A stretch of DNA of 64,000 bases, taken from assembly GCA_965247115.1 (NCBI GenBank), contig CBDFGR010000002.1, forward strand, positions 1,088,001 to 1,152,000, in the 5' to 3' direction. Shown piece by piece: positions 22,462-52,181 of the stretch (within the stretch, counting starts at the first letter, position 1; every line of letters begins with the position of its first letter). The position numbers and the translations under genes were made by a program. Below the pieces are notes generated by a model. It had not been told where the DNA came from. It worked only from the letters and a program-made list of their open reading frames with translations, and did not search any database. The DNA comes from Myxococcota bacterium. GTDB taxonomy: Bacteria; Myxococcota_A; UBA9160; SZUA-336.

Positions 22462-22490
22462 TTGACAGCGTCAGGAGCTGCGTACATAGT
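22462..22490 (+). promoter_or_regulatory. Putative sigma70 promoter for the gmhB-epimerase operon
   Basis: TTGACA, 17-bp spacer, CATAGT in the divergent intergenic region. Confidence 0.55.
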
Positions 22491-22604
22491 CACCTGCGCA
22501 GCCGGACGAGCTCGTCGGCTGGGAGGACGAACCAGAGGTACTACCGGCGCTCTCTTCGCCTCTGGGCTGGCAAAGATCCTCGTCCGAGCGACTCGAGCAA
22601 CGCA

Positions 22605-25197: not shown

Positions 25198-25210
25198 GGA
25201 GGATGAACGG

Positions 25211-26752: not shown

Positions 26753-26773
26753 GCTGGGGAAATTGAGCGAGTC

Positions 26774-30527: not shown

Positions 30528-30548
30528 GCCAGGCGCGCCTGAGGACTC

Positions 30549-31484: not shown

Positions 31485-31497
31485 GAGGATCAGACCC

Positions 31498-32454: not shown

Positions 32455-32484
32455 TGACGATCCACCATTGAGGGCTAGAGGCGC

Positions 32485-33474: not shown

Positions 33475-33624
33475 CGTCTAACTCTCTCAGTCATGTACCA
33501 AACCAACGAACCCCGCGGATTATAGCCTATGAGAGGTCCCGCCCACATGCTCGGAGCGTGCAGCGTGCCAGGATGCGCGCCCGAGTGATATGATGCACCC
33601 TGACGAGTTCCACCAATCGCGCGC

Positions 33625-34542: not shown

Positions 34543-34554
34543 GGGGTCGTTGCG

Positions 34555-35907
34555 ATGGCAACTGACGCAGCGATTAGAGTCACTCACCTTTCGAAGAAGT
34601 ATCAGCTCTTTGATTCCAAGGCCCATCGAGTCCGCGAGGCTCTCCATCCTCTCCGCCGCACCTATCACCGAGAATTCTGGGCCTTGAAGGACATCAACCT
34701 CGAGATCCCGAAAGGCCTCACCGTAGGCATCCTGGGTCTCAACGGCTCGGGGAAATCAACTCTTCTTCAGATCATTGCTTCGGTTCTCGAACCGACGGCC
34801 GGTACGGTCCAGGTCGACGGAAAGGTCGCTGCGCTTCTCGATCTCGGAGCCGGACTCAACCCGGATCTGACCGGACGTGAGAACGTAGTCCTGAGCGGAA
34901 CGATCATGGGGCTCAGCCGCGAGCAGATTCTCGAGCGCATGGACGAGATCGAGTCCTTTGCCGACATTGGGCAGTTCTTCGACCAGCCTATGAGGACCTA
35001 CTCGTCTGGCATGTTCATGCGCGTCGCCTTCTCGACCACGATCTACGTGGACCCCGAGATCCTACTGATCGACGAGGTCCTCTCCGTCGGAGACATCAAG
35101 TTTCAAGAGAAGTGTTTCCGCCGACTCAGAGGTCTGCAGGAAGCTGGGAAGACCATCCTCATTGCCACTCATGATCGCTCGATGGTGCCGCGAATCTGCG
35201 AGCTCGGCTTAGTGTTGCATCAGGGTGAGCTCGTCGAGCTAGGAGAGCCCGCTCGAATCATCGACCTGTACGGCCAACTGCTAGCCTTCGGTCAGGTTCA
35301 GGACGAGACCGCTGTTCCAGGAGTGAACCTGACTTCCGTTGAGAGTGTAGACGCCTGCACGCAACCGACTCGAGAAGTCGTCGACCCGATCAAGGCCTTT
35401 CTCGAGAATCCCTCAGTTGAGGATCGGTGTAATCTGAACCCCACGTATAACAAGTATGAGCAGCGAAGCGGCGACGGGCATTGCGAGATCATCGACTTCC
35501 TGATCCAGGAAGGATCCAACCTCAACCCGAGTAGTATCTACGCAGGTGGTCACGTGGACATCTATGCAAAAGTGCGCTTCCACTCAGAAGTCGAGAGTCC
35601 CATCTTCGGTCTCGAGTTCATGAACAAGGAAGGCGTCATCCTCTATGGAATCAATACCGAGATGATGATGAAGAGCCTCGAGTCCGGGAGGCCCGGCTCT
35701 ATTCGCTGCTATCGCTTCAGAGTACGGGCGGCACTCTCACCCGGTGATTGGTTCATCTACTTCTGCATTGCCCGATCCTCGACCGAACTCTGCGACTACC
35801 GCTGCGCCCTCTCGCATCTCCATGTCATGGAGCAGCATCGATACACCGGACTCACGAGGTTCGAGACGGAGTTTCGAGAGCTCGAGGCGACGGATCCCTT
35901 TCCCTGA
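34555..35907 (+). CDS. wzt: Polysaccharide ABC exporter ATPase with C-terminal Wzt_C-like domain
   Basis: FWALKDIN, GLNGSGKST, YSSGM, LLIDEVLSVGD; ~150 aa beta-rich C-terminal extension. Confidence 0.92.
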   Translation: MATDAAIRVTHLSKKYQLFDSKAHRVREALHPLRRTYHREFWALKDINLEIPKGLTVGILGLNGSGKSTLLQIIASVLEPTAGTVQVDGKVAALLDLGAGLNPDLTGRENVVLSGTIMGLSREQILERMDEIESFADIGQFFDQPMRTYSSGMFMRVAFSTTIYVDPEILLIDEVLSVGDIKFQEKCFRRLRGLQEAGKTILIATHDRSMVPRICELGLVLHQGELVELGEPARIIDLYGQLLAFGQVQDETAVPGVNLTSVESVDACTQPTREVVDPIKAFLENPSVEDRCNLNPTYNKYEQRSGDGHCEIIDFLIQEGSNLNPSSIYAGGHVDIYAKVRFHSEVESPIFGLEFMNKEGVILYGINTEMMMKSLESGRPGSIRCYRFRVRAALSPGDWFIYFCIARSSTELCDYRCALSHLHVMEQHRYTGLTRFETEFRELEATDPFP

Positions 35908-35913
35908 ACGGAG

Positions 35914-37596
35914 TCAATCAGCAGTCGGACTCTCGGGATGCGGGACCCTCGATACTGCAGGAAAGTCAGGCCACCAGCCATGGTAGGCAGCGACAAGTGA
36001 GATGTCCGGTAGCATCTCGTAGTCTTCTCCGTCGATGCAGCCGAGAATCACCCGGAAGGTGTTGACAGGAGAAATTCGGTCATAGAGTCGAGATCTGCAG
36101 GCGCCGGGCAGGCGAATACTGTTCAGAATCCCGAACACTTCCAGGACATCGTCAGAAGTCCATTCGGCCGCTGGACGCTCTCGCATCTTGTTGATCATCG
36201 TAGTCCCGTGATCTCCTTGAACGACGATGATCGCCTTCGGGTCGACCTCGATTATGGCGTCAATCGCATCACGAAGCTGAGCTTCCATGCACGGGACCTG
36301 CTCACGATAGGCGATCTCCAGGGCGGACCGAGTCGGTTTTGGAGTGCGCCCGTATATGCGTAGCGGGTGCTGATAGTCGCATTGGCTATCGAATGCCAGG
36401 TTGTGGACACCCATGAAGTGGACGAACCAAAAGAAGGGCCACTCGTCCTCACCCGGGATGTCCCCCACAACATCGCGAGGCTGATAGGAATGAAAGAACG
36501 CGATCGTTCCATCCCGCAAATCAGGCAAATGGTCATCGGGTCCCGTTTCTGTCCAATCGGGCTCGAACCGATCTAGAAGCCAGAGAATCGGAGTCGCCTT
36601 GACCAATCCGAGCTCCTGCATCGTTACGAGGCGGCTTCGCTTGCGGATACATCTATCCTCGTACCCGCCGCACTCAGTTGCGGGCAGAAACCCGTTGGTG
36701 GTGTGCAGGATTTTGTAGCCTCGGGCTCGAAAGGCGGCTGTCACCGGGCTGTTTCCTCTGAGCAGGGCCCCGCCATCTGCCGTGGTGTTGTATATGGCTT
36801 CGGGGCCCTCCTCTACGATGAAGTCCATGTTGAGTGTGCTGGAAATCGAGTAGGCCGTGACCGGGAAGTTGGAGTAGCTCTCATCAGCGACGAAGAAGCC
36901 ATTTGACTCGAGATAGTCGATGAACTCGGAGTAGTCTGACTCGTAGAACTTCTGAAAGGCGTCGTTGCGCACGAGCGAGTCAACAGTCAGATGGTAAACG
37001 TTAGGCCTTGATTCGGGGAGATTGCTGGGCTGGATGAGGGGCTGGCCGCGCCATGGCTTGTAGGTTCCCCTGGCCAAATGCCCTGGCATCTCTGGCAGCT
37101 CAGGGCCGGCGCGCTGAGCCACCGCGGAGGCAACGACAGATACACTCATAAGCAGGAGAACCGCCGGAAGGATTCTACGAATCATCGCGAACCGGGGCAC
37201 GAAGTAGAACGCGATGCAGAGGACGAGCGTGACCACACCCCAGGAGACGATCTTGCCGTGGTCCCACTCCTGCGGAAGCACACCGACCAGGCTGTGGTAG
37301 TTGAAGAACATCAGCGCAAGCGCTGCGGTCGCGTATAGGCACTTCACTGTCGACCGGAACAGCGTAAGTGCGAGGATGGCAACGTAGAGCGGAAGCGAAG
37401 CGAAGAGGCTGAAGACGAAAGCGGCGAGGAAACGCGGATTGTCTATGTACTCGGCGTCTGCATAGTTAAACGCCCAGAGATTGCAGAAGGGCCATGCGAG
37501 GGCCAGCACCAGGACAGCCACTCCGCCGAGGATCTGGCTTCCGCGTCCAGGTCTGCCGCCTGGGACACCTGGCTGTCCTCCTTCTGCTATCGTCAT
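35914..37596 (-). CDS. Membrane-anchored alkaline-phosphatase-superfamily (sulfatase/LtaS-like) protein
   Basis: About 5 N-terminal TM helices; RPNVYHLTVDS, SNFPVTAYSISS (Thr nucleophile position, no CxPxR), VHFMGVH, QGDHG. Confidence 0.78.
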   Translation of the reverse strand: MTIAEGGQPGVPGGRPGRGSQILGGVAVLVLALAWPFCNLWAFNYADAEYIDNPRFLAAFVFSLFASLPLYVAILALTLFRSTVKCLYATAALALMFFNYHSLVGVLPQEWDHGKIVSWGVVTLVLCIAFYFVPRFAMIRRILPAVLLLMSVSVVASAVAQRAGPELPEMPGHLARGTYKPWRGQPLIQPSNLPESRPNVYHLTVDSLVRNDAFQKFYESDYSEFIDYLESNGFFVADESYSNFPVTAYSISSTLNMDFIVEEGPEAIYNTTADGGALLRGNSPVTAAFRARGYKILHTTNGFLPATECGGYEDRCIRKRSRLVTMQELGLVKATPILWLLDRFEPDWTETGPDDHLPDLRDGTIAFFHSYQPRDVVGDIPGEDEWPFFWFVHFMGVHNLAFDSQCDYQHPLRIYGRTPKPTRSALEIAYREQVPCMEAQLRDAIDAIIEVDPKAIIVVQGDHGTTMINKMRERPAAEWTSDDVLEVFGILNSIRLPGACRSRLYDRISPVNTFRVILGCIDGEDYEMLPDISLVAAYHGWWPDFPAVSRVPHPESPTAD

Positions 37597-37718
37597 CTCC
37601 TACTCAGCCGTCGGTTCGCTCAAGCAGGCCCCCTCGTATCGATTCAGCGACTAGGCGCTACCGTAGTGTATCATGATCACGAGCACTGGCTGCGTTCGTG
37701 CGCCAAGGAGACGTTTCG

Positions 37719-38054
37719 ATGACAAAGTATGTTGTTCTTGTCGGCCTCGTGTATTTCGCCTTGTTCCTGGTCCCCAGCGCGAACGCTGGGCTGCTGGTTC
37801 AGGACGGCCAGGTCACCATGGTGTCGAACACCACCGGAAACCAGTCCCAGTACAAGGTCGATGTCGTCGGAGGGACTGGCTTGTGCGCGGATACCACTCT
37901 CATCTTCAATGAGGCAAGGGCCGGAGATCATGAGGTCTTCAAGCGCGGTTTCGCCGTCGCTCTCACGGCGCTGGCAACGCGATTGCCGGTGACGGTCTAT
38001 TCCTATGACGACGATAACTGTTACAGCTCCGCCTACATTCACATCCGGGACTGA
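37719..38054 (+). CDS. Small secreted protein (recalls DUF5992-like proteins)
   Basis: RBS AAGGAG, signal peptide ending SANA-G, two Cys. Confidence 0.6.
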   Translation: MTKYVVLVGLVYFALFLVPSANAGLLVQDGQVTMVSNTTGNQSQYKVDVVGGTGLCADTTLIFNEARAGDHEVFKRGFAVALTALATRLPVTVYSYDDDNCYSSAYIHIRD

Positions 38055-38122
38055 GTCGGCGCTCCTAGGGCACCTCTCGCAGAGAGTCTGACGCCCTGAA
38101 GGCCTTCCTCGGCTCCAGAGGA

Positions 38123-39481
38123 ATGGGGATCACCGGGCCAGCAACCTACGCTCAGTGGCAGAGCCGGATCTTCGCGGTCTCTTGGGCAACATACTTCGCC
38201 TACTACCTGTGCCGACTGAACATGACGGTGGCGAGCACTCCTCTTCGAGAGACCTTCTCGTGGAGTGCTGCGGACCTCGGAAAGGTCTTCTCATCGCTGA
38301 CCCTCTTCTACGCCATCGGTCAATTCGTGAACGGTCAGCTCGGAGACCGATTCGGCGCTCGTATCATCACTTCCCTTGGAATTCTCGGTTCCATCGGGAT
38401 GAACTGCGCCGTCTTCGTCCTCAGCAGGTACGCGCCTCCAGACGTAGGCCCAGGAGGAGCGAGTTTGACCCTGCTCATCTGCTTCTGGGGTGCCAACGGG
38501 TTCTTTCAAGCGATGGGGTGGGCACCACTCGTAAAGGTGATGGCGAACTGGTTCCCGCTCCTCGGTCGCGGGAGGGTAATGGGATGGTTTGGTACCTCCT
38601 ATCAGCTTGGAGCGGCGGCCGCCGTGGCGCTCGCAACGTTTCTCACTGGCTACTACGCCCATGAGCTCAGTGGCGATTGGCGAATGGTCTTCCTTGTTCC
38701 TTCCGGCATCTTTGCGCTCGTCGGAGTGCTGTTCTTCTTGTTTGTAAGGGATTCTCCCGCTGACCTTGGAGTCGTAGATCCGAGCAGCACCGCCGCGAGC
38801 GAGATGCGAATCGAGCCACGGCCCATACTTCACAACATCCTTGCGACGGTCCGGGATCCGAAGCTGCTGATCATTGCGAGTGCGTTCTTTCTGCTCGACG
38901 TCAATCGCTACGGGTTCGTAAACTGGATGCCGGCGTTCCTCGATGATTCATCGCCCAGCAATTCCAGCCCATTGCTTGCAAACGTCGAGAAGGCCATCAA
39001 GCTTGTCATCCATCCTCTCGCCGGTTCCGTCGGAGCTATCGTCGCAGGCTGGGCCACGGATCGGTTCTTCGGGGGACGACGCGCGCCCGTCGTCGCGATC
39101 CTGCTGGTTGGACTGGGGATCTTCTCCTTCGCGTTCGTCTCCGTCGATCCCAACGACACGTTCTGGGTCGTCAGCATCGTTGCCATGGTGGGATTCTGTA
39201 CCTACGGGCCACACATCCTCATGGTCGGACATGCAGCGCAAGACTTTGGTCGTGAGCAGGGATCTGCTAGCGCGGCGGGGTTCATCGACTGCATGGGATA
39301 TATCGGGGCGACGCTCGCTGGCTGGGGCGCGGGGATCCTCATCGAGCGCGTGGGGTACGCCGTGACCTTTCAGACGTTCGGCTACGCTGCAATTGCCGGG
39401 GCCGCCCTGATCAGTTTGCTGTGGCGTACCAGGCCGGTCGCAACACGGCCCCACCAATCGATACGAGTTGGTGTCCGCTGA
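38123..39481 (+). CDS. MFS transporter, GlpT/UhpT organophosphate:Pi antiporter family
   Basis: YFAYYLCRLN, YAIGQFVNGQLGDRFGAR, NGFFQAMGW, NRYGFVNWMP, SAAGFID..GYIG. Confidence 0.85.
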   Translation: MGITGPATYAQWQSRIFAVSWATYFAYYLCRLNMTVASTPLRETFSWSAADLGKVFSSLTLFYAIGQFVNGQLGDRFGARIITSLGILGSIGMNCAVFVLSRYAPPDVGPGGASLTLLICFWGANGFFQAMGWAPLVKVMANWFPLLGRGRVMGWFGTSYQLGAAAAVALATFLTGYYAHELSGDWRMVFLVPSGIFALVGVLFFLFVRDSPADLGVVDPSSTAASEMRIEPRPILHNILATVRDPKLLIIASAFFLLDVNRYGFVNWMPAFLDDSSPSNSSPLLANVEKAIKLVIHPLAGSVGAIVAGWATDRFFGGRRAPVVAILLVGLGIFSFAFVSVDPNDTFWVVSIVAMVGFCTYGPHILMVGHAAQDFGREQGSASAAGFIDCMGYIGATLAGWGAGILIERVGYAVTFQTFGYAAIAGAALISLLWRTRPVATRPHQSIRVGVR

Positions 39482-39488
39482 GCACGAC

Positions 39489-40640
39489 TCAAGCTCGTGG
39501 CGGAGCCAAGTTTTCAAAGGCCTCGATCAGTAGCTGACGCGCTCCGGCTTCGTCGATCGTCGCGAGATTGTTCCCTGCCCGCTCCGGTGCGATAAGCCGC
39601 CCCTTGAGTCCAGCAAGAGCGCCTCGGTCGGGAACGTGAGCTCTTACCAGCCCTGCGAGATCGGCTATCTGGAAGAGTCCGTCCAAGCGCTCGAGCGCCC
39701 GCTCCAGGCTCTCGCAGCCAAGGGACTCGATGACGAGACAGGTACGTTCGGCCGCGACGGAGTGGTTCAGGCGGAGGACCTGCGGCAGTGTGAAGCTGAC
39801 GGCCAGCCCGTGCGGCAAACCGAGCTCGGAAGTAATCGGATAGGAGATCGAGTGCGCGAGGGCGGTGCGGGTGTTGCTGATGGCCACTCCCGCAAAGTGA
39901 CTGGCGAGCTGGAGGGTCTCCCGGACCTCGAGGTTGCCCGGAGTCTGGAGCACGAGCTCCAATGCGTCCGGGATCCGGCTGATGGCATTTACGGCGAACA
40001 GGTCGGACACGGAGCTGGCATTCCGATTCCAGATTGACTCCATGGCGTGCGAGAGCGCGTCGAGAGCGCTCGCGATCGTGGCCTCTCTGGGGAGCGAGAC
40101 CGTCAGCTCGGGGTCCAGGATAGCCAGGTCGGGGAATAGTCCGGGATGAGTGAGGGAACACTTAGCCCCCGTATGTTCGTCCCAGAGCGTCGCAAAGGGT
40201 GTAACTTCGCTGCCCGTCCCCGCCGTGGTCGGGACCGCGATGAGCGGGCCCAGATCCAGTCCCTCAGCAAGTGGTCGACCGTCGCGAAGGTGGGCCTCGA
40301 AGTCCTCCTCGGAAACCTCGGGGGCCCTCAGAACTGTCACCGCCTTAGCCGTATCAATCGCGCTTCCGCCACCCACTGCGAGCAGAACGGGTCCCGGCCT
40401 TTCCTTCTCCAGCTCCCGCGCGGCGGCGAGACAGTCGTGAATGGTCGGGTTGGGTGATACTCCGGTGTACACATTTCGCAGCCGGGTCCCGAGTAGACGC
40501 TCGACCCGTTCCAACGTACCGCGGCGCAGCGCCCCTGCCGTCATCACAGCTACGGCGTCCCGTCCACCGAGCAGCTCCGGCAGCGCTCTCAGTGACGAGC
40601 GGCCGGTAACCAGCCTAACCGGATTTCGAAACTCTCTCAC
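39489..40640 (-). CDS. Iron-containing alcohol dehydrogenase; phosphonoacetaldehyde reductase (makes 2-hydroxyethylphosphonate)
   Basis: VGGGSAIDTAK, PTTAGTGSEVT, DALSHAMES, AHSISYP, PHG; co-transcribed with pepM/ppd/mpnS. Confidence 0.85.
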   Translation of the reverse strand: MREFRNPVRLVTGRSSLRALPELLGGRDAVAVMTAGALRRGTLERVERLLGTRLRNVYTGVSPNPTIHDCLAAARELEKERPGPVLLAVGGGSAIDTAKAVTVLRAPEVSEEDFEAHLRDGRPLAEGLDLGPLIAVPTTAGTGSEVTPFATLWDEHTGAKCSLTHPGLFPDLAILDPELTVSLPREATIASALDALSHAMESIWNRNASSVSDLFAVNAISRIPDALELVLQTPGNLEVRETLQLASHFAGVAISNTRTALAHSISYPITSELGLPHGLAVSFTLPQVLRLNHSVAAERTCLVIESLGCESLERALERLDGLFQIADLAGLVRAHVPDRGALAGLKGRLIAPERAGNNLATIDEAGARQLLIEAFENLAPPRA

Positions 40641-42004
40641 GGCTCATCGATGCGATTGCGTCCTGCGGGATCGAACCACTGGACCGTTTCCGCGGCAACG
40701 CGTTCACGGCCCGCGGCATCGATCCGCGAGAGCTCTCGCATGGGGTCCCCAGCCATCCGACCTCCGACTCGCAGCGTGAGAACGGTCGCGCCATCGCCCG
40801 CGAAGGCGTGAGGGACGAACGGCTTCATGCAGAATGAGTCCCCGGGATGAAGCCGCTCGGAGAAGGCCTGGCTCTCGATTGTCCAATGCACTTCCAGCGG
40901 CCGATCGCCAACTACATAGCCGTATTGGTGCAGGCCGGCTCTCAGATCGAGCTCACGGAGTTCTGAGTCCAGAACGTTGACCTCCAGCGACTTCGAGTGA
41001 GCAAGGTGATGCGTGGAGGCTAGCTCGACCATCCGATATCGAGAGATTCCGTCGGGATAGGTCCAGGACGGGCATTCAGCATAGTGGCGGACTACCACGG
41101 GCTCCTCGACCTCGTTCGGCGGATGGAGCTCTCGCGAGTCCACGCCCAGAGCAGCCGCGAGGGCGTTCAGCTCTGCCCGGGTGGCAGCGCGAACGCCGGC
41201 GCGCAACTCTCCGAGACGTGTCGCAGAAATGGCAGAGCGCCGCTGCAGCTCCTCATGACTCATGGACAACGCCTCTCGGTGAAACTCCAGCAGGCGGGCG
41301 GCCGCCCGCTCGGGGGCGCTGAGATCGAGGACGTACGCCTCACGCTGCTCGACTCCGAGAGTTGAGAGCTCTTGGCGAGCATCCCCGGCGAGCTTGTCCC
41401 CGTAGGTCAGGGCCAGTATGCAGCCGGGCTCGCGAGCCTTGGTTGAGCGCACAGCGAAGCTGTGAGGAACGAAGGGCGTGATGTACATCGAATCGCCCGT
41501 GTTCATCACCGCCACCTGTTTCTGGCCATCCCGCCCCCGATGGTAGAAATTGACCGGGCCCACGAAGTAGGTGAACTGGTGCATGAAGTGGCCGTTATTC
41601 CACTGGATTGCTTGGTCCTCTGGGTCATCAGTCGTGACCTCGCAGAGCTCCTTGATCCACTCTGGCCGGAACGGGGCTACCGCGCTCATGGCTGTGTCAC
41701 GATATTCGTAGTAGGGCTTCCCGGCACGATCCATCACCCGGGCCGACTCGACCGACTCCGAAGCGCGCATGACGCGTAGGCCTTTCGGATTGTCGTCTAG
41801 CATCGGGAGGAAGTCCCGTAGGCTCATCGGCCAGATCTCCACTGCCCGCAAAACCAATTCGAAGGGGATCTCAACCCGCTCTTCAAGTAGGTCCTGCATC
41901 TCGGCCTCGGAGACTCCGAGCTCCAGGGCCGCGTCGGCCGGTCGACGCTTGAGGTCGTTCAGAATGCCTCGCAGGTGGTGTCCGGTCATGATCCGCTCAG
42001 ACAT
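40637..42004 (-). CDS. mpnS: Methylphosphonate synthase
   Basis: ILNDLKRRP, PYYEYRDTAMS..APFRPEWI.ELC, QWNNGHFMHQFTYF.G.VNF..MNTGDSMYITPF.PH (His-x3-Gln..His triad with Phe and Ile at MPnS spacing), duplicated HTH-cupin, ET.QWFDP; RBS GGAGGAG. Confidence 0.9.
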   Translation of the reverse strand: MSERIMTGHHLRGILNDLKRRPADAALELGVSEAEMQDLLEERVEIPFELVLRAVEIWPMSLRDFLPMLDDNPKGLRVMRASESVESARVMDRAGKPYYEYRDTAMSAVAPFRPEWIKELCEVTTDDPEDQAIQWNNGHFMHQFTYFVGPVNFYHRGRDGQKQVAVMNTGDSMYITPFVPHSFAVRSTKAREPGCILALTYGDKLAGDARQELSTLGVEQREAYVLDLSAPERAAARLLEFHREALSMSHEELQRRSAISATRLGELRAGVRAATRAELNALAAALGVDSRELHPPNEVEEPVVVRHYAECPSWTYPDGISRYRMVELASTHHLAHSKSLEVNVLDSELRELDLRAGLHQYGYVVGDRPLEVHWTIESQAFSERLHPGDSFCMKPFVPHAFAGDGATVLTLRVGGRMAGDPMRELSRIDAAGRERVAAETVQWFDPAGRNRIDEP

Positions 42005-42740
42005 CGTCTCCTCCAGCGTTTCGGTAGTCCTCCAGCGTGTCGATCTCGGCCCACCCACCCCTTATGGGAAAGGTTCGAACGACTTGCCCAGAATCGATGA
42101 GCTCCTGGAACATGTCGGTCAAGTACGCCTTCCGGAACGTCGCCGCTTGCTGGAAGGGTCGATCCAACCCCTGGGCCTCGATCTCGTGGAAGGTCCGAAC
42201 GAGAACCTCTAGCCCTGCGCGCTCGATCTTGCAAAGCCCGATGAACTCGGAGTCTGATTCTGCCGGACTGAGGTGCTTGCCTATGCGCACGACGCAACCG
42301 TTCTCGCTAACGATGTTCTCAGCCTCCTCGACAGGGTGGTCGAGGCGACCGACATAGCCAGAGCGCCAGTCGAAGTCTGCGACGACACAGAAGGGTCCGT
42401 CGTTGCGCACCAGGCCCTGAGCAACCTCTGGCTCATAGACGATATCGGAGTAGCTGACCACCAAGTCATCATCGAACTCGGACTCCGCGTAGAACAGGGA
42501 GTGAAGGATATTGTTGTTCAGATAGTCCGGGTTCAGATAGGACCGAGTTCCAGGAACATGTAGCTTCTCAGCGCGATGTCCCTTGACGATAGCGATCTCC
42601 TCGATGCCGGCTGCACGCAGCGCGCGGATCTGATACTCGATGATGGCCTTCCCACGGACGCGCAGCGTACACTTTGGTCGCTCCAGCGTGAGTGGCGCCA
42701 GCCGACTCCCTGGCCCGGCCGCGACGATGATTCCCTTCAC
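41997..42740 (-). CDS. Phosphonate/phosphocholine cytidylyltransferase (PntC/LicC-like)
   Basis: IIVAAGPGSRL.PLT.ERPKC, NPDY..NNILHSL, SYSDIVY, WAEIDT.EDY. Confidence 0.85.
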   Translation of the reverse strand: MKGIIVAAGPGSRLAPLTLERPKCTLRVRGKAIIEYQIRALRAAGIEEIAIVKGHRAEKLHVPGTRSYLNPDYLNNNILHSLFYAESEFDDDLVVSYSDIVYEPEVAQGLVRNDGPFCVVADFDWRSGYVGRLDHPVEEAENIVSENGCVVRIGKHLSPAESDSEFIGLCKIERAGLEVLVRTFHEIEAQGLDRPFQQAATFRKAYLTDMFQELIDSGQVVRTFPIRGGWAEIDTLEDYRNAGGDDV

Positions 42741-43900
42741 GTCTCTGCCAGCCAGCTCATGAAGAGCTCCTTGACCTGCGGCGGAGCGAGCTTTGGTCGG
42801 CCGAGGTTAGGAATCGAGCCGGGTGCGACTTTGACATGGATCAGGTTTGGACCGGACATCTCACGGGCTTCGCGGACGTGGAGTGCGAGCGAGCCTATGG
42901 AGTCCACGCGCCAGACATGTCGATAGCCGCAACCCGCCGCGACCGTGGCAAAGTCGACGGTCGGGGAAACTGTGGGCTGCCCACCGGTGGAGTCGTGGAC
43001 CTCGTTGTCAATCACGACGTGCGTCAGGCCCGAGGGCCCATAGTGCCCGATGGTTCCTAGCACTCCCAGCTTCATGAGAGAGGCACCATCACCGTCCAGG
43101 ACGACGACGCGGCGTAGTCGTCCCACTCGCCGGCTCGCCTCGTGCAGGCCGAGACCAATCGCCGACGCGCAGCCCATGGACCCGACCACGTAGAGCTGAT
43201 TCGGTCGATGCCCAAGCGTGAAGAGTTCGCGGCCTATTTTGCCGGTTGTAGCAATCAACGCCTCATCGCCCTCCAGCGCACCACGAATCGTCCTGATCGC
43301 TTCGATTCTGGGCATCCGTTCCGGACCCGCGAGCTCAAACACGCCTACGGGGATGGCCTGGGCTCCCACCGACACGGGGGTAGCGGGAAGTGCGCGAGCG
43401 TCATGCAACGCCCCGTGCTTCACGATGAACGCGAACGGCCGACTAGAGGCATCGATCGCCTTCTCTGCCCGCTCCAGCGCTGGCTCAATCTCAGAGACCT
43501 GATCCGGGAACACCTCCCAGGGGACGTGGACGACCTCCAGCAACCGCTCGATGATTCTCCCCATAAGCTCGTGCTGCGGCTCATCGTCCAAACCGGGAGC
43601 GCCACGGTGGCTCACGAGAAGCAACGTAGGGATCCGGAACGGGTACTGAAGCGACGTCAGCGGATTGACCATGTTCCCCAGGCCGGAGTTCTGACACAAC
43701 GCGACGGACTTGCGTCCTGCGAGGTGCGCACCTGCAGCAATGCCAAGAGCCTCACCTTCGCTCGCAGCGCCGATATAGTCGAGGTCCACACCGCCACAAA
43801 CGCGGTTGATTAGCGGCGTCAGGAACGAGCACGGAACGCCAGACCAGAACGAGTACCCACGACGAAGGACTCGAACCACGAAGTCGTCGGCCTCGATCAT
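42737..43900 (-). CDS. ppd: Phosphonopyruvate decarboxylase
   Basis: [67 protein letters not shown]. Confidence 0.95.
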
Positions 43901-45555
43901 CGCTCCGGCCTCTGCCCGGGCCCCCTGTAGCGATCCGCTGCGATGACATCCTGCCACTCATCGATGTCGAACCAGTGCCCAACGGTGTAGAGGCCATCGA
44001 TGGAGACGCCTGAATCGAGCAAGAGGTTGAAGAGCTCGGGCATGCGCATCTCGTCGACCCGATCTCTCACGCTAGGCTCCTCGAGCGCTTGTCGGATCCG
44101 ATGAAGACCCTCGGTGGAGAGTTTCATCATCCCGATCCACTCACCGTGAATCGGCTCCTCCACCTTTCCGTCGATCGCCGCCACCACTCTCTGGAGCGAG
44201 GTTGTTAGATCGAAGTCCTCTCGCCGATAAGGGTGCGCGCAGCGAACGAACTCGCCATATCGTCGGCGGTTCTGCGATTGCTCCCAGCTCGGATCGACGG
44301 CAAGACAGATGTCCGCCTCAGACTCGAGCAAATGCATGGGGATGAACTTCTGGAATAACACGTCCCCATAGCTAACCAGCACCGGCCCTTGAATGCTCTC
44401 CAGACCGGCGCGGAGAGAGTAGACAACCTGTGCGGTGTCGTAACGATCGTTGTCGACGTATCTCAAGTCGGGGAGATCGATAGCCTCCTTCTTGTACCCA
44501 CGAACCACAGTAATATCTTCGAGTCCCAGCTCCCGGAACGTATCGACCTGTTGTGAGAGGAGAGGCTGACCGCTGATTGAGACCATCGCCTTCGGGCGAT
44601 CCTGCGTCAGCTCTCCAAGCTCGGAGCCGCGAGAGGCAGCCAGCACGAGGGCCTGAGCTGAGGTCTTCCGAGGGAGGTAGCGCTTCTCTGCCTCCCTCAG
44701 CTCCTCTGCGCCCTGGAGGCGGAAGACCTCGGAGACAGGGACGATGCGCTCCTCGATGTCGAGAAGCGTCTCCTCATCGTGGAGCTGCAGTGCAACTCGC
44801 TGCATGCTCGTCATGCTCGCGCGCATCAGGTGGTTTGCCCAGATCACCACCCGGAAGCCCGCTTTTCGGAAGACATCAGTCGGAGTGCTGTAGTACATCG
44901 TCGGAACGATGATCACCGGGGAGCGTTCGCCCCACTCGCCCTTGAAGGCCAGAACCTCATCCGGGCGACGCAGCTTGGAGTGGATCAAGATAGCGTCGGC
45001 ACCCGCACGACGATACGCCTCCGCCCGCTTGAGCGCCTCCGCGAGTCCGAGTCCGGAGATGAGAGCTTCCACTCGAGCCACGATGCAGAAGTCGTCGTTG
45101 AGCTGCGCGTCCTTTCCAGCCTTGATCTTGCCTGCGAACTCGTCGATGTCCGCGAGGGGCTGCGTTCCGCCTTCGATGAACGAGTTGGTCTTCGGATACA
45201 GCTTGTCTTCGATGCAAACACCAGCCACGTCACGCGCCTCGAGTTTGCCAACGAGCCTCCGCATGTTGTTGAAATTCCCGTACCCCGTGTCGCCGTCCAA
45301 GAGCAACGGGATCGTCGTTGCGTCCGTGATGTACTCGAGGATGTCCAGGACCTGGGTCCAGCTGAGCTCGTTGTTGTCGCGTACTCCGCAGGCTGCGGAT
45401 ATAGACAGGCCGCTCCCCCAAAGGCCCTTGAACCCAGCCTCTTCGGCGATCTTGGCGCTCAGCCCGTTATGCGCCTCCATCAGGAAGCTCAGCGAGGGGC
45501 TGGCAATGAGCTCGCGCAGTCGTGTCGCCCTCGATGCAGCGGCCAGGTCAACCAT
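43897..45555 (-). CDS. pepM: Phosphoenolpyruvate mutase fused to a C-terminal nucleotidyltransferase
   Basis: [17 protein letters not shown], diagnostic [18 protein letters not shown]-terminal [31 protein letters not shown]. Confidence 0.95.
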
Positions 45556-46723
45556 CTCCGCCTCGCTCTGCCCTCTCCGCAGCCTCGAGGATGCTCCGCG
45601 CGCCGACACTTCCACTCGTTCCGAGGTTGTAGACGCAGCGATCGCGAATCGCGCGCAGCCTCTCACGCTGACGCTCGGGAGTCGCACAGAGCTCGGCGAT
45701 CCGCTTGCGCGCCTCCGCAACATCGTCGGGAGCAACCACCGACCCGATTTCCGCTCGAATCCCGGCCTCTAGCGGCTCCATCCCCAGTTTCTCCCACCTC
45801 GGGTTGTTCACCTTCCGCGGAGTATCGACGAACAGCACGGGTCGTTCCAGCCCGAACGCGTACTCAAGGGCCGCTCCCGACCAGTCGCTGATCATGATGT
45901 CCGAGGTGTGTAGGGATTCCTGGCCGCTCACATCAGTTTCGACTGTGAGAGATCCGCCTCCTCCAAAGCGTGACCGCAGGCTCGCGGGCAGCTCAGGAAA
46001 CCGGCGAGTTGTCATCGGGTGAAGTCTCACAGTCAGCCTCAGACCCTCTTCCAGGAGTCCCGCGATCCAGTCGTCCGCCCACTCGGACTCGATGAGCGAG
46101 CCTCCTCCCCACGAAGGCGCCATGAGGACGTGAAGTCCTGAGCGGTCGGTTGGATCAGAAGCGGACCGTTTCGCGGCCTGCGCCCGAATCTCGTCGAGCC
46201 GCCCGTACCCGTGCTCGATGAGGCGCCGCTCAGGCAGCCCGTACACGTCCTCGGCTCTCCTGAGCTCCTCGACATGGTGAGGTCCGGCGCAGAGGAGCGT
46301 ATCATAATGATCAAACGCTCCTTCCCTGTAGATCATGTGCGTACTCACGAGCGAATGGAAGACGTATATGTAGTGGACGGGGTGAGAAGAGCGTTTCAGA
46401 TGAAAGCGGTCGAGATCGGGGAGCGTCATCACGAGCACCGAAGCCTTGAGCCCGCGAAACAGGATCGTCCGGATCGACCCTGAACCGATGCAGAAGGCCC
46501 GGACGTTCGGATGCCCGGCCCGGAAGATGGGATCGTCGGCCTCCGAGGTCAGATAGCAGATGGCATGGCCGCGCTGGCAGAGCTCGGAGATGATCGGTTG
46601 AAAGTGTGGCCAGTCGTGAAGACCTTCGGCATAGAACACGATGCGTCGCGCGTCCCTGGGCAGGGCCGAGAAGCGCCGCAGCTCGGACCATTCCGCACCA
46701 AGTCGCTTGAGCGCCGTGAACAT
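45548..46723 (-). CDS. CDP-glycerol glycerophosphotransferase (TagF/TagB)-like protein
   Basis: [56 protein letters not shown]. Confidence 0.8.
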
Positions 46724-46778
46724 CCAGTCGCTTGTGCCCCGTCGGATCAGGTTTGATCACCGGACGTACCTGAGAAAC

Positions 46779-47030
46779 CTAGTCTGAGTCGTTGGCCGGG
46801 TGAACTTCTCGTCGGGCGTCGTCGCCTGCGGCCTTGCCGCCAAAGACTGCCTTGAGGCGACGCCAGTAGGCCTTTGCCAGGAACGCGGCTGCAGTGATGC
46901 TCGCGATTGCCGCCTGAAGGAGCATGCTGGTAGTTCCAGCATCGATATAGGCGAGCGCATCACGCGGGAAGGCTACGACCAAGACGGCCAGGGGAACGCC
47001 GCTCCAACGAGCAAATCGACGGAGGCTCAC
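46779..47030 (-). CDS. Small membrane protein with AYID(A/P)GT.S motif
   Basis: LAVLVVAFPRDALA-YIDAGTTSMLLQAAIASITAAAFLAKAYWRRLK: signal-like segment, TM helix, basic tail; start uncertain. Confidence 0.65.
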   Translation of the reverse strand: MSLRRFARWSGVPLAVLVVAFPRDALAYIDAGTTSMLLQAAIASITAAAFLAKAYWRRLKAVFGGKAAGDDARREVHPANDSD

Positions 47031-47107
47031 CGGGGTGGGCGGGGGGGATGCGCGCACGAGCCCCATCGTATAGATGCTCCCGAATCGGATCAACTTCGAG
47101 CCTTGCA

Positions 47108-48202
47108 TCAGCTCTTCCAGGCCGGAGGAGTCAGAAGATCGAGCACCCTTGCTCCAGCCAAGCCCGCGATCGCCAGGAGCCTGAGGCCCAGCCTGCGTCC
47201 ACTGCTTGCGACGGCGGCTCGAGAGGCAAACACCTCCGCGCGGTGGCCCAGCATCCATTGCAGGTAGCGCCAACCCAGGCCCCAGTGGACGGGGTTCGTC
47301 ACCAGGACGGTGAGCATCTGACGGCCAAACGGCGAAAAGAGACCTGGGCGGGCTCTGAAGATCGGAGCCACATCTCGGTTTCGAGGCTCCTTTACCGCAC
47401 TCACAAGTGCCTTCAGCACTCGTCTTTGACGCACCGAATCGGACATCCCGGATCCGGAGTAGGTCCCGGGAGTCTCGCGCATCAGCGCTAGCGTCTCGGG
47501 TACCACACACGCTCCGTGACGCAGAGCGAGGATGTAGAAGACGAACCACTCCGAGTGCCATTGGAGCTCTGGGCGAAACGCACCTGCCTCGAGGAGGGCG
47601 CCCCGGCGAGCGAGCACGGTATTCCCCGACATCCACAAATAGCTGGTGGCAAGCCTGCGCTTCAGGGCAGCTGGAGGCAGAAAGCGAGCTTCCTTACCGA
47701 GGTCGAATGCCAGCCCGAGGTCGAATGCCAGCCCTGTGGCCGAGTCGCCCAGATACTCCCGAATGCGCTCCGTTCCATCCTCGAAGACAGCCAGCCGAGA
47801 GAAGCACACTCCCGCCTCCGGATGAGAGCGGAGGATCCTCATGTTGCGCTCCAGGAAGCGGGGGAGAAGCCGGTCGTCAGCAGATGCCCACACCACGAAG
47901 TCCATCGACGCCAGGGTCAGGGCGCGCTCGATGGAGGTCATGAGCCCTCGGTTCCTCTTGTTGCGGACAAGGGTGACGAAGGGAAATCGGCGCACGAATC
48001 CCTCGATCACAGCCACGCTGTCATCGGTGGAGCCGTCGTCCACCACGATGACCTCGTCCGGCTGGAGCGTCTGGCCACAGATCGCTCCCAGGGAGTCGGG
48101 GAGATATCTGGCGTGGTTGTAGTTGCACAAGAGGATCGACACCGTCGGTCGGCCTCGTGGCTCTCTGTGCGCTTCCACGGCCGACCGACTCAGCGGGCCC
48201 AT
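47108..48202 (-). CDS. Glycosyltransferase family 2 (paralog of 31498-32454)
   Basis: SILLCNYNHA, VDDGSTDDS, WASADD, ELQWHSEWF; true start probably slightly downstream. Confidence 0.88.
   Translation of the reverse strand: MGPLSRSAVEAHREPRGRPTVSILLCNYNHARYLPDSLGAICGQTLQPDEVIVVDDGSTDDSVAVIEGFVRRFPFVTLVRNKRNRGLMTSIERALTLASMDFVVWASADDRLLPRFLERNMRILRSHPEAGVCFSRLAVFEDGTERIREYLGDSATGLAFDLGLAFDLGKEARFLPPAALKRRLATSYLWMSGNTVLARRGALLEAGAFRPELQWHSEWFVFYILALRHGACVVPETLALMRETPGTYSGSGMSDSVRQRRVLKALVSAVKEPRNRDVAPIFRARPGLFSPFGRQMLTVLVTNPVHWGLGWRYLQWMLGHRAEVFASRAAVASSGRRLGLRLLAIAGLAGARVLDLLTPPAWKS
47697..47734. repeat. Perfect 18-bp in-frame tandem duplication inside the GT2 gene
   Basis: CCGAGGTCGAATGCCAGC x2, giving GLAFDL-GLAFDL. 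Confidence 0.85.
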
Positions 48203-50805
48203 GCTCGCTCGAAGAAGCCCGGGTTGAGGGCGTCAGATCGCCGCATGACTACCCGCCACGGGGCCGGCAGCTTGTATGCCGAGCGCCTGATCAGCAACCC
48301 GTCGTGAGGGTTCACGTAGCGCCTGCGCTGCTTGATGTAGATCACGCTGCGAGTCTTCGCCGCCATGAGGCCCAGGTAATGGGCAATTTGCTCCCGCCGC
48401 ATCTCGTGCAGGGAGCTGACCGTAGCGCAGGCGTCGAAGTAGCCGTCCGGAAACATCTCGAGCTGGTTGGGGGTGAGAAACGCCAGATCCGCCTGCTCGA
48501 GCTCTTCTGCAACTTCAGCGTAGCTCGAGAACGCGCGAAACTTGAAGATACGACGGTCGCTAAAGAGCCTCGAGAGGTACCACTGCGACACATAGAGCGC
48601 CGGTGGAATGTCGAAGACGACGTATCGGCAGGGGGAGGTCGCAAGGAGCACGTGTCCGAGACGGCCGTACCCTGCCCCCAATTCGGCTATCAAGGTGGGT
48701 CGATCTCGTCCTGGCTCTGACTGAGTGTAGGAAACGTCCAGCGCGTCGACGATGGCGTTCCGCTCTCGCACCGAGTTCGCGAGATCCTGGGAGATCATCC
48801 GCCCATCGCGACGAACGCGGATCGGATTCCCTAACTCAGGCTCCTCCAACTGCGCGAGCACGCCCTCGCGATCGCTCCTGAGCACGTACTCATGAAGCGA
48901 GGCAACGTAGAGTTTGTACAGCTTCAGCCGACGCTCCCGATCGTCCTTGAAGATGTAGTAGTCCTCTACCCACGATAACCACAGCCGCGGGTCGCAATCG
49001 GGATCGTCGATCTCGTAGCGCACGAGTGCGGGCATCCCGCGCCTCAGCCAGAGCCTTACCAGGTTGACGATCTTTGGATCCCAAAGCGACGAAGGAACGA
49101 AGTTGAAATAGGCCTGATTGACCGTTCGCTTGAAGTGGGGCTCGCCACCAAAACCCAGCAGTGTGGTGTGGTCTCGATTCATCACTTCCCAGAACTTCGA
49201 AGGTCGGTAGATCTCGGGCGCCGACTCGAGCTCGCCCCGCATCCGTTCGATCTCCACTCGACCTTCCGCACTCAGTAGGTTCCGCTCCACGCCCCTTCTG
49301 TGCAGATAACGAACGACATCTCCGTGATGACCAGCACTAGCCAAGGAGAGGGCCTCTCCGCCTCGTGCAGCCGCATCCGCCCCGTTCTCATGCAGGTACC
49401 TCACCAGATCCAGGTGCCCAGCGTTCGCGGCTGCGCGTAGCGGTTCATCTTCCGCTTCTCGGATGTCGGCCCCGTGCTGGTACAGCGTCCGCACCGCCTC
49501 CAGGTACCCGCCGCTCGCCGCTGCCCGCAGCGCCGCGCCATGCCCTGCGTTGGCGTCGGCACCGATCTCGAGGAGCTTCCGAAGGCTGTCGAGATCCCCT
49601 GCGCCTGCCGTTCTAATGACAGCGCCCTCGTCGAACGCGCGAGGGTCTCCGCCTCCGAGCCGGATGTATCTGGCGACCTGCGGGTGGCCGCGCGCCTCGA
49701 CTTGACGGAGCAGCTCCGCACCACACGCGCTCAGGTTGGCCCCATTTTCATGGAGATACCGCACGACGCCCATGTGTCCGCCGAGTGCAGCTCCCCGAAG
49801 TGCGGCTTCCCCTCCGGCCCGCAGGTCGCCACCGCTCGCGTGCAGGTACCTCACTACCTCCTGGTGCCCGCTTGCTGCGGCAGCCTGAAGCGCTGCGTCC
49901 GATCCTGCCCGGATGTCCGCGCCGGCCGCGTGCAGATACTCCACTGCTCCCAGGTGGCCGTTCGATGCGGCCGCGCGCAGGGCGCGGCCATCCCCCGCGT
50001 TGGCATCGGCACCGATCTGTACGAGCTGCGCCAGACCCTCCAAGTCTCCCGACCGGGCCAGGGCAACGAGGGCGTCCTCATCGAACGCACGCGGATCGCC
50101 ACCTCCGCGGCTGATGTAGCGCGCTGTCTGGCGATGCCCGTGCTCTTCGATTTGACACAGCAGCTCTGCGTCGCACGCGCCCAGGTCCGCCCCGTTCTCG
50201 TGGAGATATCGCACAACGCCCAAGTGTCCGCCGAGTGCCGCTCCCTGAAGTGCGGCTTCCTCTCCGGCTCGCAGGTCGCCACCGCTCGCGTGCAGATACT
50301 CCACTACCCCCAGGTGGCCGTTCGACGCGGCCGCGCGCAGCGCCTCGTCCCCGCCGGCGTGGATGTCGACTCCGTTCGTGTGCAGATACATCACGACGCT
50401 CACGTGGCCATTGCACGCTGCGCCCTGGAGGGCAGGCTGCCCAGCAGCTCGGATGTTGACTCCGTTTTGATGCAGGTACTCGACCACCTCAAGATGCCCG
50501 CTGGCCGCCCCACCGCGCAGCGCAGAGTCGCCTCCTGCCCGAATGTCCCCGCCAGCACCGTGCACGTATCGCATCACCTCCAGGTGACCTCGGGAAGCCG
50601 CCTCGATGAGCGCAGCGTTATCTCCGGCTTCGACTGCGGCGCCTCGTTGAACCAGGGAGGTGGCGATCTCCAGATTGCCTGCAGCGGCTGCCGCTAGCAG
50701 CGCGTCATTCAGGTCGAGCTGGGAGCAAGTCCCGCTGCTGAGCATGCGATCCACACCAGGGAGATCCCCGGTCGAGGCAGCGGCACACAGCTCGTCGTGT
50801 GTCAT
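48190..50805 (-). CDS. Ankyrin-repeat protein fused to a putative sugar O-methyltransferase (TIGR04371-like)
   Basis: ~500 aa of 30-aa repeats (AL..AA..GHL.VV.YLH..GAD); C-terminal YRPSKFWE, IAELGAGYGRL, VFDIPPALYVSQWYL, SLHEM. Confidence 0.85.
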   Translation of the reverse strand: MTHDELCAAASTGDLPGVDRMLSSGTCSQLDLNDALLAAAAAGNLEIATSLVQRGAAVEAGDNAALIEAASRGHLEVMRYVHGAGGDIRAGGDSALRGGAASGHLEVVEYLHQNGVNIRAAGQPALQGAACNGHVSVVMYLHTNGVDIHAGGDEALRAAASNGHLGVVEYLHASGGDLRAGEEAALQGAALGGHLGVVRYLHENGADLGACDAELLCQIEEHGHRQTARYISRGGGDPRAFDEDALVALARSGDLEGLAQLVQIGADANAGDGRALRAAASNGHLGAVEYLHAAGADIRAGSDAALQAAAASGHQEVVRYLHASGGDLRAGGEAALRGAALGGHMGVVRYLHENGANLSACGAELLRQVEARGHPQVARYIRLGGGDPRAFDEGAVIRTAGAGDLDSLRKLLEIGADANAGHGAALRAAASGGYLEAVRTLYQHGADIREAEDEPLRAAANAGHLDLVRYLHENGADAAARGGEALSLASAGHHGDVVRYLHRRGVERNLLSAEGRVEIERMRGELESAPEIYRPSKFWEVMNRDHTTLLGFGGEPHFKRTVNQAYFNFVPSSLWDPKIVNLVRLWLRRGMPALVRYEIDDPDCDPRLWLSWVEDYYIFKDDRERRLKLYKLYVASLHEYVLRSDREGVLAQLEEPELGNPIRVRRDGRMISQDLANSVRERNAIVDALDVSYTQSEPGRDRPTLIAELGAGYGRLGHVLLATSPCRYVVFDIPPALYVSQWYLSRLFSDRRIFKFRAFSSYAEVAEELEQADLAFLTPNQLEMFPDGYFDACATVSSLHEMRREQIAHYLGLMAAKTRSVIYIKQRRRYVNPHDGLLIRRSAYKLPAPWRVVMRRSDALNPGFFERAWAR

Positions 50806-50830
50806 GAACGCGCTACTAGGCTGCCAGACG

Positions 50831-52024: not shown

Positions 52025-52181
52025 CTAGCGCAGTTTATCGCGCGCAAGGGGATTGTAGCTCAGATGAGCCTAAGTAGTTGAAAACAAGGAACTCCCCGGC
52101 GGGGACCCGGGATCTCAGGTTCGCGATATACTCCGACCACGAGCTCATCGCAAGTCCCAGCTCGGCCCCCAGTAGATCCCA

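Follow-up and report, generated by a model that had tools for sequence, protein, structure and literature searches.

Among described systems, the pepM-ppd-pdh-mpnS cluster of Nitrosopumilus maritimus, which encodes the methylphosphonate (MPn) synthase MPnS (6B9S/6B9T), resembles the locus reported here in the same five signature residues and the same four-step pathway, with a nucleotidyltransferase (NTase) gene beside mpnS and glycan genes nearby (PMC9381506, accessible part). A four-enzyme cascade from PEP to MPn works in vitro, according to the accessible text of PMC12619172. The NTase PntC (Tde1415, Ari1348) has the PF12804 fold and the motif GXG(T/S)RX4-8PK, in which a role is assigned to Arg15, and occurs PepM-fused and PepM-adjacent in a glycan context, all as in the locus described here; characterised PntCs, however, activate AEP, and the accessible portion of PMC6697681, from which these data are taken, contains no assay of an NTase with MPn ('methylphosphon', 0 occurrences). 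The TagF and TarL polymerases (3L7I, 8VA1) combine PF04464 with a GT-B fold. A literature search found, within the searchable papers, no description of the step that links MPn to a carrier.

The window, i.e., the whole stretch of 64,000 nucleotides that was analysed, comes from an uncultured member of the Myxococcota, a bacterium of 66% GC. On its minus strand lie pepM (43897..45555, 552 aa, PEP mutase with a C-terminal PntC-like domain), ppd (42737..43900, 387 aa, phosphonopyruvate decarboxylase), a stand-alone PntC/LicC-like NTase gene (41997..42740, 247 aa), mpnS (40637..42004, 455 aa, methylphosphonate synthase) and an Fe-ADH gene (39489..40640, 383 aa, predicted phosphonoacetaldehyde reductase, PhpC-like), successive genes overlapping by 4, 4, 8 and 4 nt. 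The original prediction of five intact, co-oriented, overlapping genes at 39489-45555 was thus borne out, all five being stop-free, but it had missed that a second NTase domain is fused to PepM and that the co-oriented run extends upstream to 52024. The added genes, all on the minus strand, encode a TIGR04440 glycosyltransferase (50831..52024), a fusion of ankyrin repeats with a NanM-type sugar O-methyltransferase (48190..50805), a GT2 glycosyltransferase (47108..48202; these three by Pfam/NCBIfam), a small hydrophobic protein (46779..47108) and a TagF-like protein (45548..46723). From 52024 to 46723 they are separated by a gap of 25 nt, an overlap of 13 nt, an overlap of 1 nt (GT2 with the small-protein gene) and a gap of 55 nt, and the TagF-like gene overlaps pepM by 8 nt. 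All genes of this ten-gene run are full length and tightly overlapping. Contigs from runs X1 and X2 cross the whole operon with zero differences; both come from one sample, possibly the assembly source, and are therefore not independent. A scan for promoters and terminators gave no signal above chance.

The run lies within a surface-glycan locus (12799..53807, both strands) of nucleotide-sugar, heptose, methyl- and glycosyltransferase genes (Pfam). It includes, on the plus strand, a Wzm/Wzt ABC polysaccharide exporter (33625..35907; PF01061, PF00005 and, C-terminal on Wzt, PF14524, Wzt_C) and a GlpT/UhpC/PgtP-like MFS transporter (38123..39481; Pfam/NCBIfam, below equivalog cut-offs) whose gene is convergent on the operon across a 7-nt gap. 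The transporter was rejected as a conserved core part, since neither the 49 mpnS loci nor the 77 TagF-like loci contain a homologue. The GC content of the glycan locus is 0.613 against a genome mean of 0.657, and the part from ~17400 to 53800 is not common to the congener G002, which has a different glycan cassette there.

From the observed genes, motifs, folds, gene order and distribution we infer every reaction of the following route. The locus is an intact and probably acquired cassette that is likely to lead from PEP to MPn, on to CMP-MPn and finally to an ester on a surface glycan. PepM would form the C-P bond from PEP, and Ppd, with TPP, would strip CO2 and so pull the unfavourable mutase step forward; Fe-ADH would then convert phosphonoacetaldehyde to 2-HEP. 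MPnS would turn 2-HEP and O2 into MPn at an Fe(II) held by H139/Q143/H181, with F153 and I175 as the published markers of the MPn outcome. The stand-alone NTase would add CMP to MPn to give CMP-MPn, from which the TagF-fold protein would transfer MPn to a sugar hydroxyl of a polysaccharide that the neighbouring glycosyltransferases may build and Wzm/Wzt may export.

PepM carries the EDK-X5-NS motif read by the original prediction, located at residue 116, and exceeds the TIGR02320 cut-off (372 bits vs 319.55); its C-terminal domain belongs to PF12804. Ppd exceeds the TIGR03297 cut-off (395 bits vs 312.5) and has the TPP motif GDG...N. Fe-ADH is over the cut-offs of PF00465 and PF25137; it falls below that of TIGR03405 (338 vs 423.7 bits), which is still its best NCBIfam match (next family, 181). 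Although not filed as a TIGR03405 member, it likely works like PhpC. The genome holds two genes for haem-copper oxidase subunit I (COX1), which makes the use of O2 by the organism plausible. The C-P lyase gene product PhnJ was not found in the 98% complete genome, so that methane, if released, would be the work of other microbes that break down the coat. One match to a phosphonate-binding protein lies elsewhere in the genome.

The original prediction listed the five enzymes, an assignment that the analysis supports, and omitted the candidate attachment genes, namely those for the TagF-like, small membrane and sulfatase-fold proteins and Wzm/Wzt. The TagF-like protein is a candidate phosphonyl transferase of GT-B fold. 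It exceeds the PF04464 cut-off (31 bits vs 22.1), its family profile matches TarL (8va1), and the ten best fold matches of its structure model are all TagF chains (TM about 0.6); a phmmer search against the PDB gave no match, the likeness having come from profile and fold searches. It differs from TagF/TarL in its ~15% identity, short stand-alone form, diderm host and linkage to a phosphonate cluster. A TagF-like gene neighbours mpnS in 9 of the 49 mpnS loci and is absent from the other 40; it occurs in 4/60 relatives, each time within a pepM cluster, and 12 of 22 TagF-like metagenome loci (flank at least 5 kb) have no pepM, ppd or mpnS. In the relatives the head-group pathway paired with it is that for AEP in three cases and for HEP in one, which suggests swappable head groups. 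Gene context points to a CMP-phosphonate as the donor, and that the protein is the MPn transferase is the reading towards which we lean. The small protein (109 aa, AYIDAGT core) is, from its translation, a candidate membrane protein with no match in Pfam and none near cut-off in NCBIfam; its gene stands directly upstream of the TagF-like gene in 43/76 TagF-like loci, a count drawn from a partly circular profile.

A membrane-anchored protein of the sulfatase/alkaline-phosphatase fold (35914..37596, minus strand) may be a second, extramembrane transferase. It has four hydrophobic segments and the residues D206, T247, H398 and D462-H463, and is placed by Atlas at 0.98 to sulfatase clusters (Pfam E 0.003, below cut-off). 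Enzymes of the LtaS/EptA type transfer through a Thr-linked intermediate. It is conceivable, if rather unlikely, that MPn is made and CMP-activated as proposed, with the TagF-like protein loading a carrier, such as a lipid, and the sulfatase-fold protein finishing the transfer outside the membrane through such an intermediate, or with a glycoprotein or lipid as the acceptor in place of the Wzm/Wzt glycan. Proteins related to the sulfatase-fold protein are encoded in 32/76 TagF-like metagenome loci, the two genes lying within 1 kb of each other in 28 of the 34 loci that have both, and among 29 relatives position 247 is always Thr or Ser and D206, H398 and D462 never vary. The accessible part of PMC9381506 also records genes of the arylsulfatase-like and choline phosphotransferase types near mpnS, and according to the available text of a preprint (10.1101/2020.11.04.368217) the phosphonates of Prochlorococcus are carried on glycoproteins. 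Against this, the sulfatase-fold gene sits 1.9 kb past the operon end, behind the convergent MFS gene, and is found in only 3/49 mpnS genome loci; a second copy in the genome stands beside a methyltransferase-like gene with no TagF-like or phosphonate gene there, and the matches to the PDB are weak and mostly to true sulfatases. In the preferred reading the TagF-like protein would itself pass MPn on to the glycan.

The identity of the oxygenase was assessed by alignment, modelling and phylogeny. The 455-aa protein matches 6b9s with an E-value of 2.6e-143 (HMMER), which, with PepM and Ppd above curated cut-offs, excludes chance; its score is 482 bits against 6b9s and 300 bits against 6b9r (S. 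albus HEPD). The alignment to 6b9s is gap-free across the signature region, with the query numbering 9 residues behind, and equates H139/Q143/H181 with the iron triad H148/Q152/H190, F153 with F162 and I175 with I184 of the N. maritimus enzyme (codons, minus strand: H139, 41588-41590; Q143, 41576-41578; F153, 41546-41548; I175, 41480-41482; H181, 41462-41464). All five residues thus stand at the spacing foreseen by the original prediction. The structure model (pLDDT 91.8) has a two-module HTH-cupin fold of about 450 aa and superposes best on MPnS (6b9t: TM 0.95, rmsd 1.9, 49% identity; 6b9r: TM 0.90, 39% identity). Gln at position 143 and an identity to PhpD of only 19-20% (23 bits) speak against class I HEPD (PhpD), which has a 2-His-1-Glu site. 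Class II HEPD of the S. albus type reads H/Q/Y/G/H at the same five columns; the Phe/Ile pair, found where Tyr/Gly would have spoken for HEPD, speaks against this class. Few assayed enzymes stand behind the Phe/Ile rule. The triad together with Phe and Ile is the stated requirement for MPn synthesis in PMC11978286, as far as its accessible text goes.

The tree of the family qualifies this picture. HQYGH (HEPD-type) sequences make up 9 of the 120 top matches, at ~50% identity and nested among Nitrosopumilaceae sequences, and overall identity was therefore dropped as a discriminator between MPnS and HEPD. In a quick, unrooted tree, from which no donor is claimed, HEPD-type and MPnS-type signatures interleave, and the clade of the Myxococcota protein has H-Q-F-I-H in 14/14 members. 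It is very improbable that the oxygenase is an HEPD or a mixed-product enzyme and that the cassette yields hydroxymethylphosphonate: the triad and fold shared with S. albus HEPD, the interleaved signatures and the only 49% identity to an assayed MPnS would allow it, but F153 and I175 are both MPnS-type, the clade is uniform, and the likeness to class I HEPD/PhpD is slight. With diagnostic Phe/Ile, MPnS as best fold match and all 2-HEP supply genes intact, the predicted enzyme assignment and PEP-to-MPn pathway are supported, and the product of the cassette is very probably MPn.

The two NTase domains differ in their motifs. In the stand-alone NTase GXG(T/S)RX4-8PK is intact (GPGSRLAPLTLERPK); in the PepM-fused domain it is degenerate (ASRGSEL...PK), with the Lys kept and the Arg absent at the position of Tde-PntC Arg15. 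The best PDB match of the stand-alone NTase is LicC (1jyk), and the PntC-aminotransferase 6pd1 is also matched. Of 119 homologues, 23 have its orthologue and MPnS joined in one protein, a fusion that points to CMP-MPn as the product; the fused domains have a median identity of 52% to the stand-alone NTase vs 30% to the PepM-fused domain, and 25/49 mpnS loci have an NTase nearer the former than the latter. Since the locus is without an AEP transaminase, either MPn or HEP would serve as the substrate. Given that MPn is made, its activation to CMP-MPn by the stand-alone NTase is quite probable. Least probable of all is that the cassette is cargo that is silent or in decay, or that 2-HEP is the main attached group with little flux through MPnS, as a patchy mpnS distribution, two NTase domains that could serve two phosphonates and a relative (G046) with TagF-like, pepM, ppd and Fe-ADH genes but no mpnS might suggest, given that all ten run genes are full length with tight overlaps, that the PepM-fused NTase lacks the motif Arg and that the link to MPnS belongs to the NTase with the intact motif.

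The gene mpnS was found in neither of two congeners, in 0/31 genomes of the family, in 0/60 relatives and in 1/400 genomes of the phylum sample, which marks the mpnS operon as patchily distributed cargo within a variable glycan locus. The notion of an unrecognised producer lineage was accordingly not upheld by the survey of the clade; Myxococcota are indeed absent from the MPn producers that the accessible part of PMC9381506 lists, but mpnS is not lineage-wide. Nor is high GC a distinguishing mark, as had been supposed, since 3/49 other mpnS loci have a gene GC of 0.64-0.69. In a study of sponges (PMC9999580) no mpnS is reported. In most of the Nitrosopumilaceae loci analysed (N. maritimus not included) mpnS and NTase-ppd-pepM lie on opposite strands and Ppd is split in two, whereas the Myxococcota locus is one co-oriented operon with a single-chain Ppd and a PepM-PntC fusion, and its PepM shares only about 37-42% identity with those of Nitrosopumilaceae. 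The closest operon (L009) belongs to another phylum, the Acidobacteriota, and has the same order of TagF-like, pepM-PntC, ppd, NTase, mpnS and Fe-ADH genes, with identities of 53, 65, 60, 55, 57 and 47%, respectively; its PepM is sister to the Myxococcota PepM (SH-aLRT 98). It differs in that no counterpart of the small membrane gene was detected ahead of its TagF-like gene and that mpnS is frameshifted near residue 350 in that assembly; the near-identical P0003 is whole. GC is weak as proof of transfer (operon 0.622 vs 0.657 +/- 0.021, with 7% of 861 genome windows as low), and transfer was judged from gene content and trees instead. On these grounds the cassette was likely acquired horizontally and is unlikely to be a lineage trait.

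The enzymes are all of known kinds, and, with the trait rare in the phylum and the horizontal movement of phosphonate genes within surface-modification islands already described (10.1101/2020.11.04.368217, available text), the climate weight of the finding is probably small. The operon brings MPn synthesis together with its predicted activation and a candidate transferase, so that the attachment step becomes testable with three proteins. With it the Myxococcota join the candidate MPn producers. We tentatively propose an undescribed module, consisting of a small membrane protein, a TagF-fold transferase and often a sulfatase-fold enzyme, that may install CMP-MPn, supplied by a dedicated cytidylyltransferase, on surface glycans and move between phyla. 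If this is true, head groups would be interchangeable, with MPn in the Myxococcota cassette beside the AEP and HEP of its relatives, and MPn esters, which feed aerobic methane release, would come from many scattered high-GC bacteria, beyond marine archaea and SAR11.

The operon lies on the minus strand (39489-45555) and comprises a pepM-PntC fusion (43897-45555), ppd (42737-43900), a stand-alone nucleotidyltransferase (NTase) gene (41997-42740), mpnS (40637-42004) and an iron alcohol dehydrogenase (Fe-ADH) gene (39489-40640). As the original prediction had described, the five genes are co-oriented and overlapping (successive overlaps of 4, 4, 8 and 4 nt); they contain no internal stops, and the genome holds one copy of each. 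With 372 bits, PepM passes the TIGR02320 cut-off of 319.55; it contains [10 protein letters not shown] and ends in a fused PF12804 domain that the prediction had not mentioned. Ppd scores 395 bits on TIGR03297 (cut-off 312.5), and the dehydrogenase has as its best family the phosphonate-cluster model TIGR03405, at 338 bits and under the cut-off. Contigs of sequencing runs X1 and X2 span the operon and show zero differences from it (all four runs come from a single sample, possibly the one behind the assembly). This is a real and complete methylphosphonate (MPn) cassette, and probably a functional one.

The host genome measures 5.17 Mb, with 66% GC and 98% completeness. Its 16S rRNA gene shows 87% identity to the one in a Myxococcota genome vs. 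75-82% to those in four genomes from other phyla. Of the best 120 matches to its L4 protein, six carry an organism name: Myxococcota four times (up to 85%), Deltaproteobacteria once and 'bacterium' once; the class is presumably UBA9160. The L4 protein, at 190 aa, is short like its closest homologues, and the S10 operon has no rplC (L3) between rpsJ and rplD, the gene sitting on another contig (G000:C1 near 66666-67570, L077:2703-3896, and G000:C3:2134279-2134572). Two COX1 genes score above cut-off and PhnJ was not found in the 98% complete genome; an O2-dependent enzyme could thus work in this cell, which shows no C-P lyase.

Most likely, the whole route leads from PEP to a surface glycan that is exported and carries MPn as an ester. 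PEP would be converted to phosphonopyruvate, phosphonoacetaldehyde, 2-hydroxyethylphosphonate (2-HEP) and MPn, four steps that follow characterised families (PMC12619172, in part); MPn would then be activated to CMP-MPn and transferred to the glycan, two steps that we infer from motif, fusion, fold and context.

The candidate for transfer is a 391-aa protein encoded upstream of pepM with an 8-nt overlap (45548-46723, minus strand), which matches PF04464 above cut-off and whose model has TagF as best fold match. The TagF-like gene occurs in 4 of 60 relatives, each time inside a pepM cluster; three of these clusters hold a transaminase of the AEP pathway, an alternative head group (two score above the cut-off of TIGR03301 and one falls 0.5 bit below it), and the fourth holds an Fe-ADH without mpnS. 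Two counts speak against a strict link to phosphonates: of the 22 metagenome loci with flanks of 5 kb or more, only 10 carry pepM, ppd or mpnS (9 without a motif-less match), and the TagF-like gene stands at only 9 of 49 mpnS loci. Over all metagenome loci, most of them on short contigs, 12 of 77 carry pepM, ppd or mpnS. A small hydrophobic ORF (46779-47108) stands ahead of the TagF-like gene at 43 of 76 loci, a count from a profile seeded on the same loci and with one gene possibly counted twice. A literature search for PntC with TagF or glycerophosphotransferase returned no report.

A two-step transfer through the membrane sulfatase-fold protein (35914-37596), or another acceptor, is unlikely. 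Relatives of this protein occur at 32 of 76 TagF-like metagenome loci (77 less the shortest). Second copies of the small ORF and the sulfatase-fold gene (G000:C3:2467638-2470828; L173:7635-10830) flank a methyltransferase-like gene where the TagF-like gene would stand.

The surroundings of the cassette hold GT2, Wzm/Wzt and nucleotide-sugar genes (Pfam); glycan-tailoring genes near mpnS have been noted in parts of PMC9381506. Paralogous TIGR04440-type glycosyltransferases (17580-18782 and 50831-52024, 43% identical) stand near either end of the variable region within the glycan locus. An ankyrin-repeat protein carries a fused NanM-type sugar O-methyltransferase domain (48190-50805); in run X3 a divergent variant has 52 letters in place of 49416-50189. 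A GlpT/UhpC-like MFS transporter gene (38123-39481) converges on the operon, is not conserved beside mpnS elsewhere, and could encode a phosphonate mover.

For activation, the stand-alone NTase has an intact GXG(T/S)RX4-8PK motif, and the PepM-fused domain is without the motif Arg; loss of the equivalent residue leaves Tde-PntC activity below 10%, and PepM-PntC fusions are common, with about 60% of PepM fused (both from portions of PMC6697681). In 23 of 119 homologues (P0011, P0015, P0017 and 20 more, about 700 aa) MPnS bears an N-terminal NTase domain, whose median identity is 52% to the stand-alone NTase vs. 30% to the PepM-fused domain; 25 of 49 mpnS loci hold an NTase nearer the former. 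Since MPnS binds free 2-HEP (title of 6b9t), the stand-alone NTase is predicted to act after MPnS, giving CMP-MPn.

The 455-aa oxygenase (P0001) scores 482 bits against N. maritimus MPnS (6b9s), 300 against S. albus HEPD (6b9r) and 23 against class I PhpD. Its AlphaFold model (pLDDT 91.8, 70 sequences) matches 6b9t with TM 0.95 and 49% identity and 6b9r with TM 0.90 and 39%. Aligned to 6b9s, its H139/Q143/F153/I175/H181 correspond to H148/Q152/F162/I184/H190, which bears out the predicted MPnS signature: the two variable positions are Phe and Ile, whereas 6b9r has Tyr and Gly. Mutating these residues reportedly converts HEPD to MPnS. HEPD activity is very improbable in view of both residues, even though HQYGH homologues of about 50% identity to P0001 lie among MPnS sequences. 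Among the best 120 matches (self included) 111 read HQFIH and nine HQYGH; the nine are nested among Nitrosopumilaceae sequences, so the MPnS call rests on two residues, not on overall likeness. The triad plus Phe and Ile are given as required for MPn synthesis in parts of PMC11978286, citing Born et al. The HEPD-type (H-Q-Y-G-H) clade inside thaumarchaeal MPnS includes locus L022 and proteins P0026, P0027, P0033, P0043 and P0044; the last is labelled 'methylphosphonate synthase' by its source, and database counts of mpnS may thus be inflated. Three Chloroflexota/SAR202 loci (L029, L030, L034) read H-Q-Y-I-H, half MPnS and half HEPD, a mixed signature that points to neither product. As a reading of the cassette, silent cargo or HEP decoration is likewise very improbable.

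The 'unrecognised producer lineage' of the original prediction did not hold: mpnS turned up in none of 60 relatives, 31 of which belong to the family, and, with at most four candidates scored per genome, in 1 of 400 genomes sampled evenly across the phylum (G421, 49% identical), and PepM exceeds its cut-off in 11 of the 60. The congener genome G002 (95% complete) matches the window at the left anchor of the glycan locus (rmlC, rfbF, C-methyltransferase, epimerase, cmcI; 75-91% identical at the protein level) and along the right flank (88-89% identical at the DNA level). It has no match to 24001 to ~53800, its Wzm/Wzt is a different one (31% and 42%), and the 60 kb inspected hold no phosphonate genes. 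A RuBisCO-large-chain-like gene (58145-59236) adjoining a xanthine/uracil permease is 88% conserved there, and short stretches (~6280-6540, 12040-12105, 12320-12480) with many copies in G002 are probably interspersed repeats or IS ends.

The closest operon, with identical six-gene order, is an Acidobacteriota locus (L009), whose PepM is sister to that of the window (SH-aLRT 98; quick tree, 55 rows). In a quick, unrooted MPnS tree (92 rows: 44 of 119 protein matches, 47 of 49 loci and the query), P0001 groups with L009 and NTase-MPnS fusions, one labelled soil metagenome (support 96), and L026, a named Myxococcota locus, has an MPnS that clusters with gammaproteobacterial sequences. The 49 loci (HQFIH 44, HQYIH 3, HQYGH 1, cut off 1) belong to Thaumarchaeota, SAR11, Woesearchaeota/Nanoarchaeota, SAR202, Gammaproteobacteria, Elusimicrobiota, Acidobacteriota and Myxococcota, and gene GC is 0.64-0.69 at three. 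At L047, L048 and L009 the mpnS homologues are cut short, split or frameshifted in their assemblies.

Reported MPn candidates include Pelagibacterales, Rhodospirillales, Rickettsiales, Oceanospirillales, Flavobacteriales, Synechococcales, Thaumarchaeota and Crenarchaeota, and the rows listed from the genome table of the same source (30 of 36 text places) give mpnS in 0 of 18 Myxococcales (PMC9381506). The literature search on mpnS and Myxococcota yielded a soil paper (PMC12874732) and no report of an MPn cassette in the phylum. In partial texts, mpnS is reported from wetlands and groundwater (PMC8692437, PMC11978286) and given as not found in one lake (PMC10734540), and phosphonate genes are described as exchanged horizontally in surface islands (bioRxiv 2020.11.04.368217). 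The attachment module is the part of the cassette worth bench time. The MPn trait is a property of a mobile glycan cassette and not of a lineage, and the original prediction therefore gave the finding too much weight.
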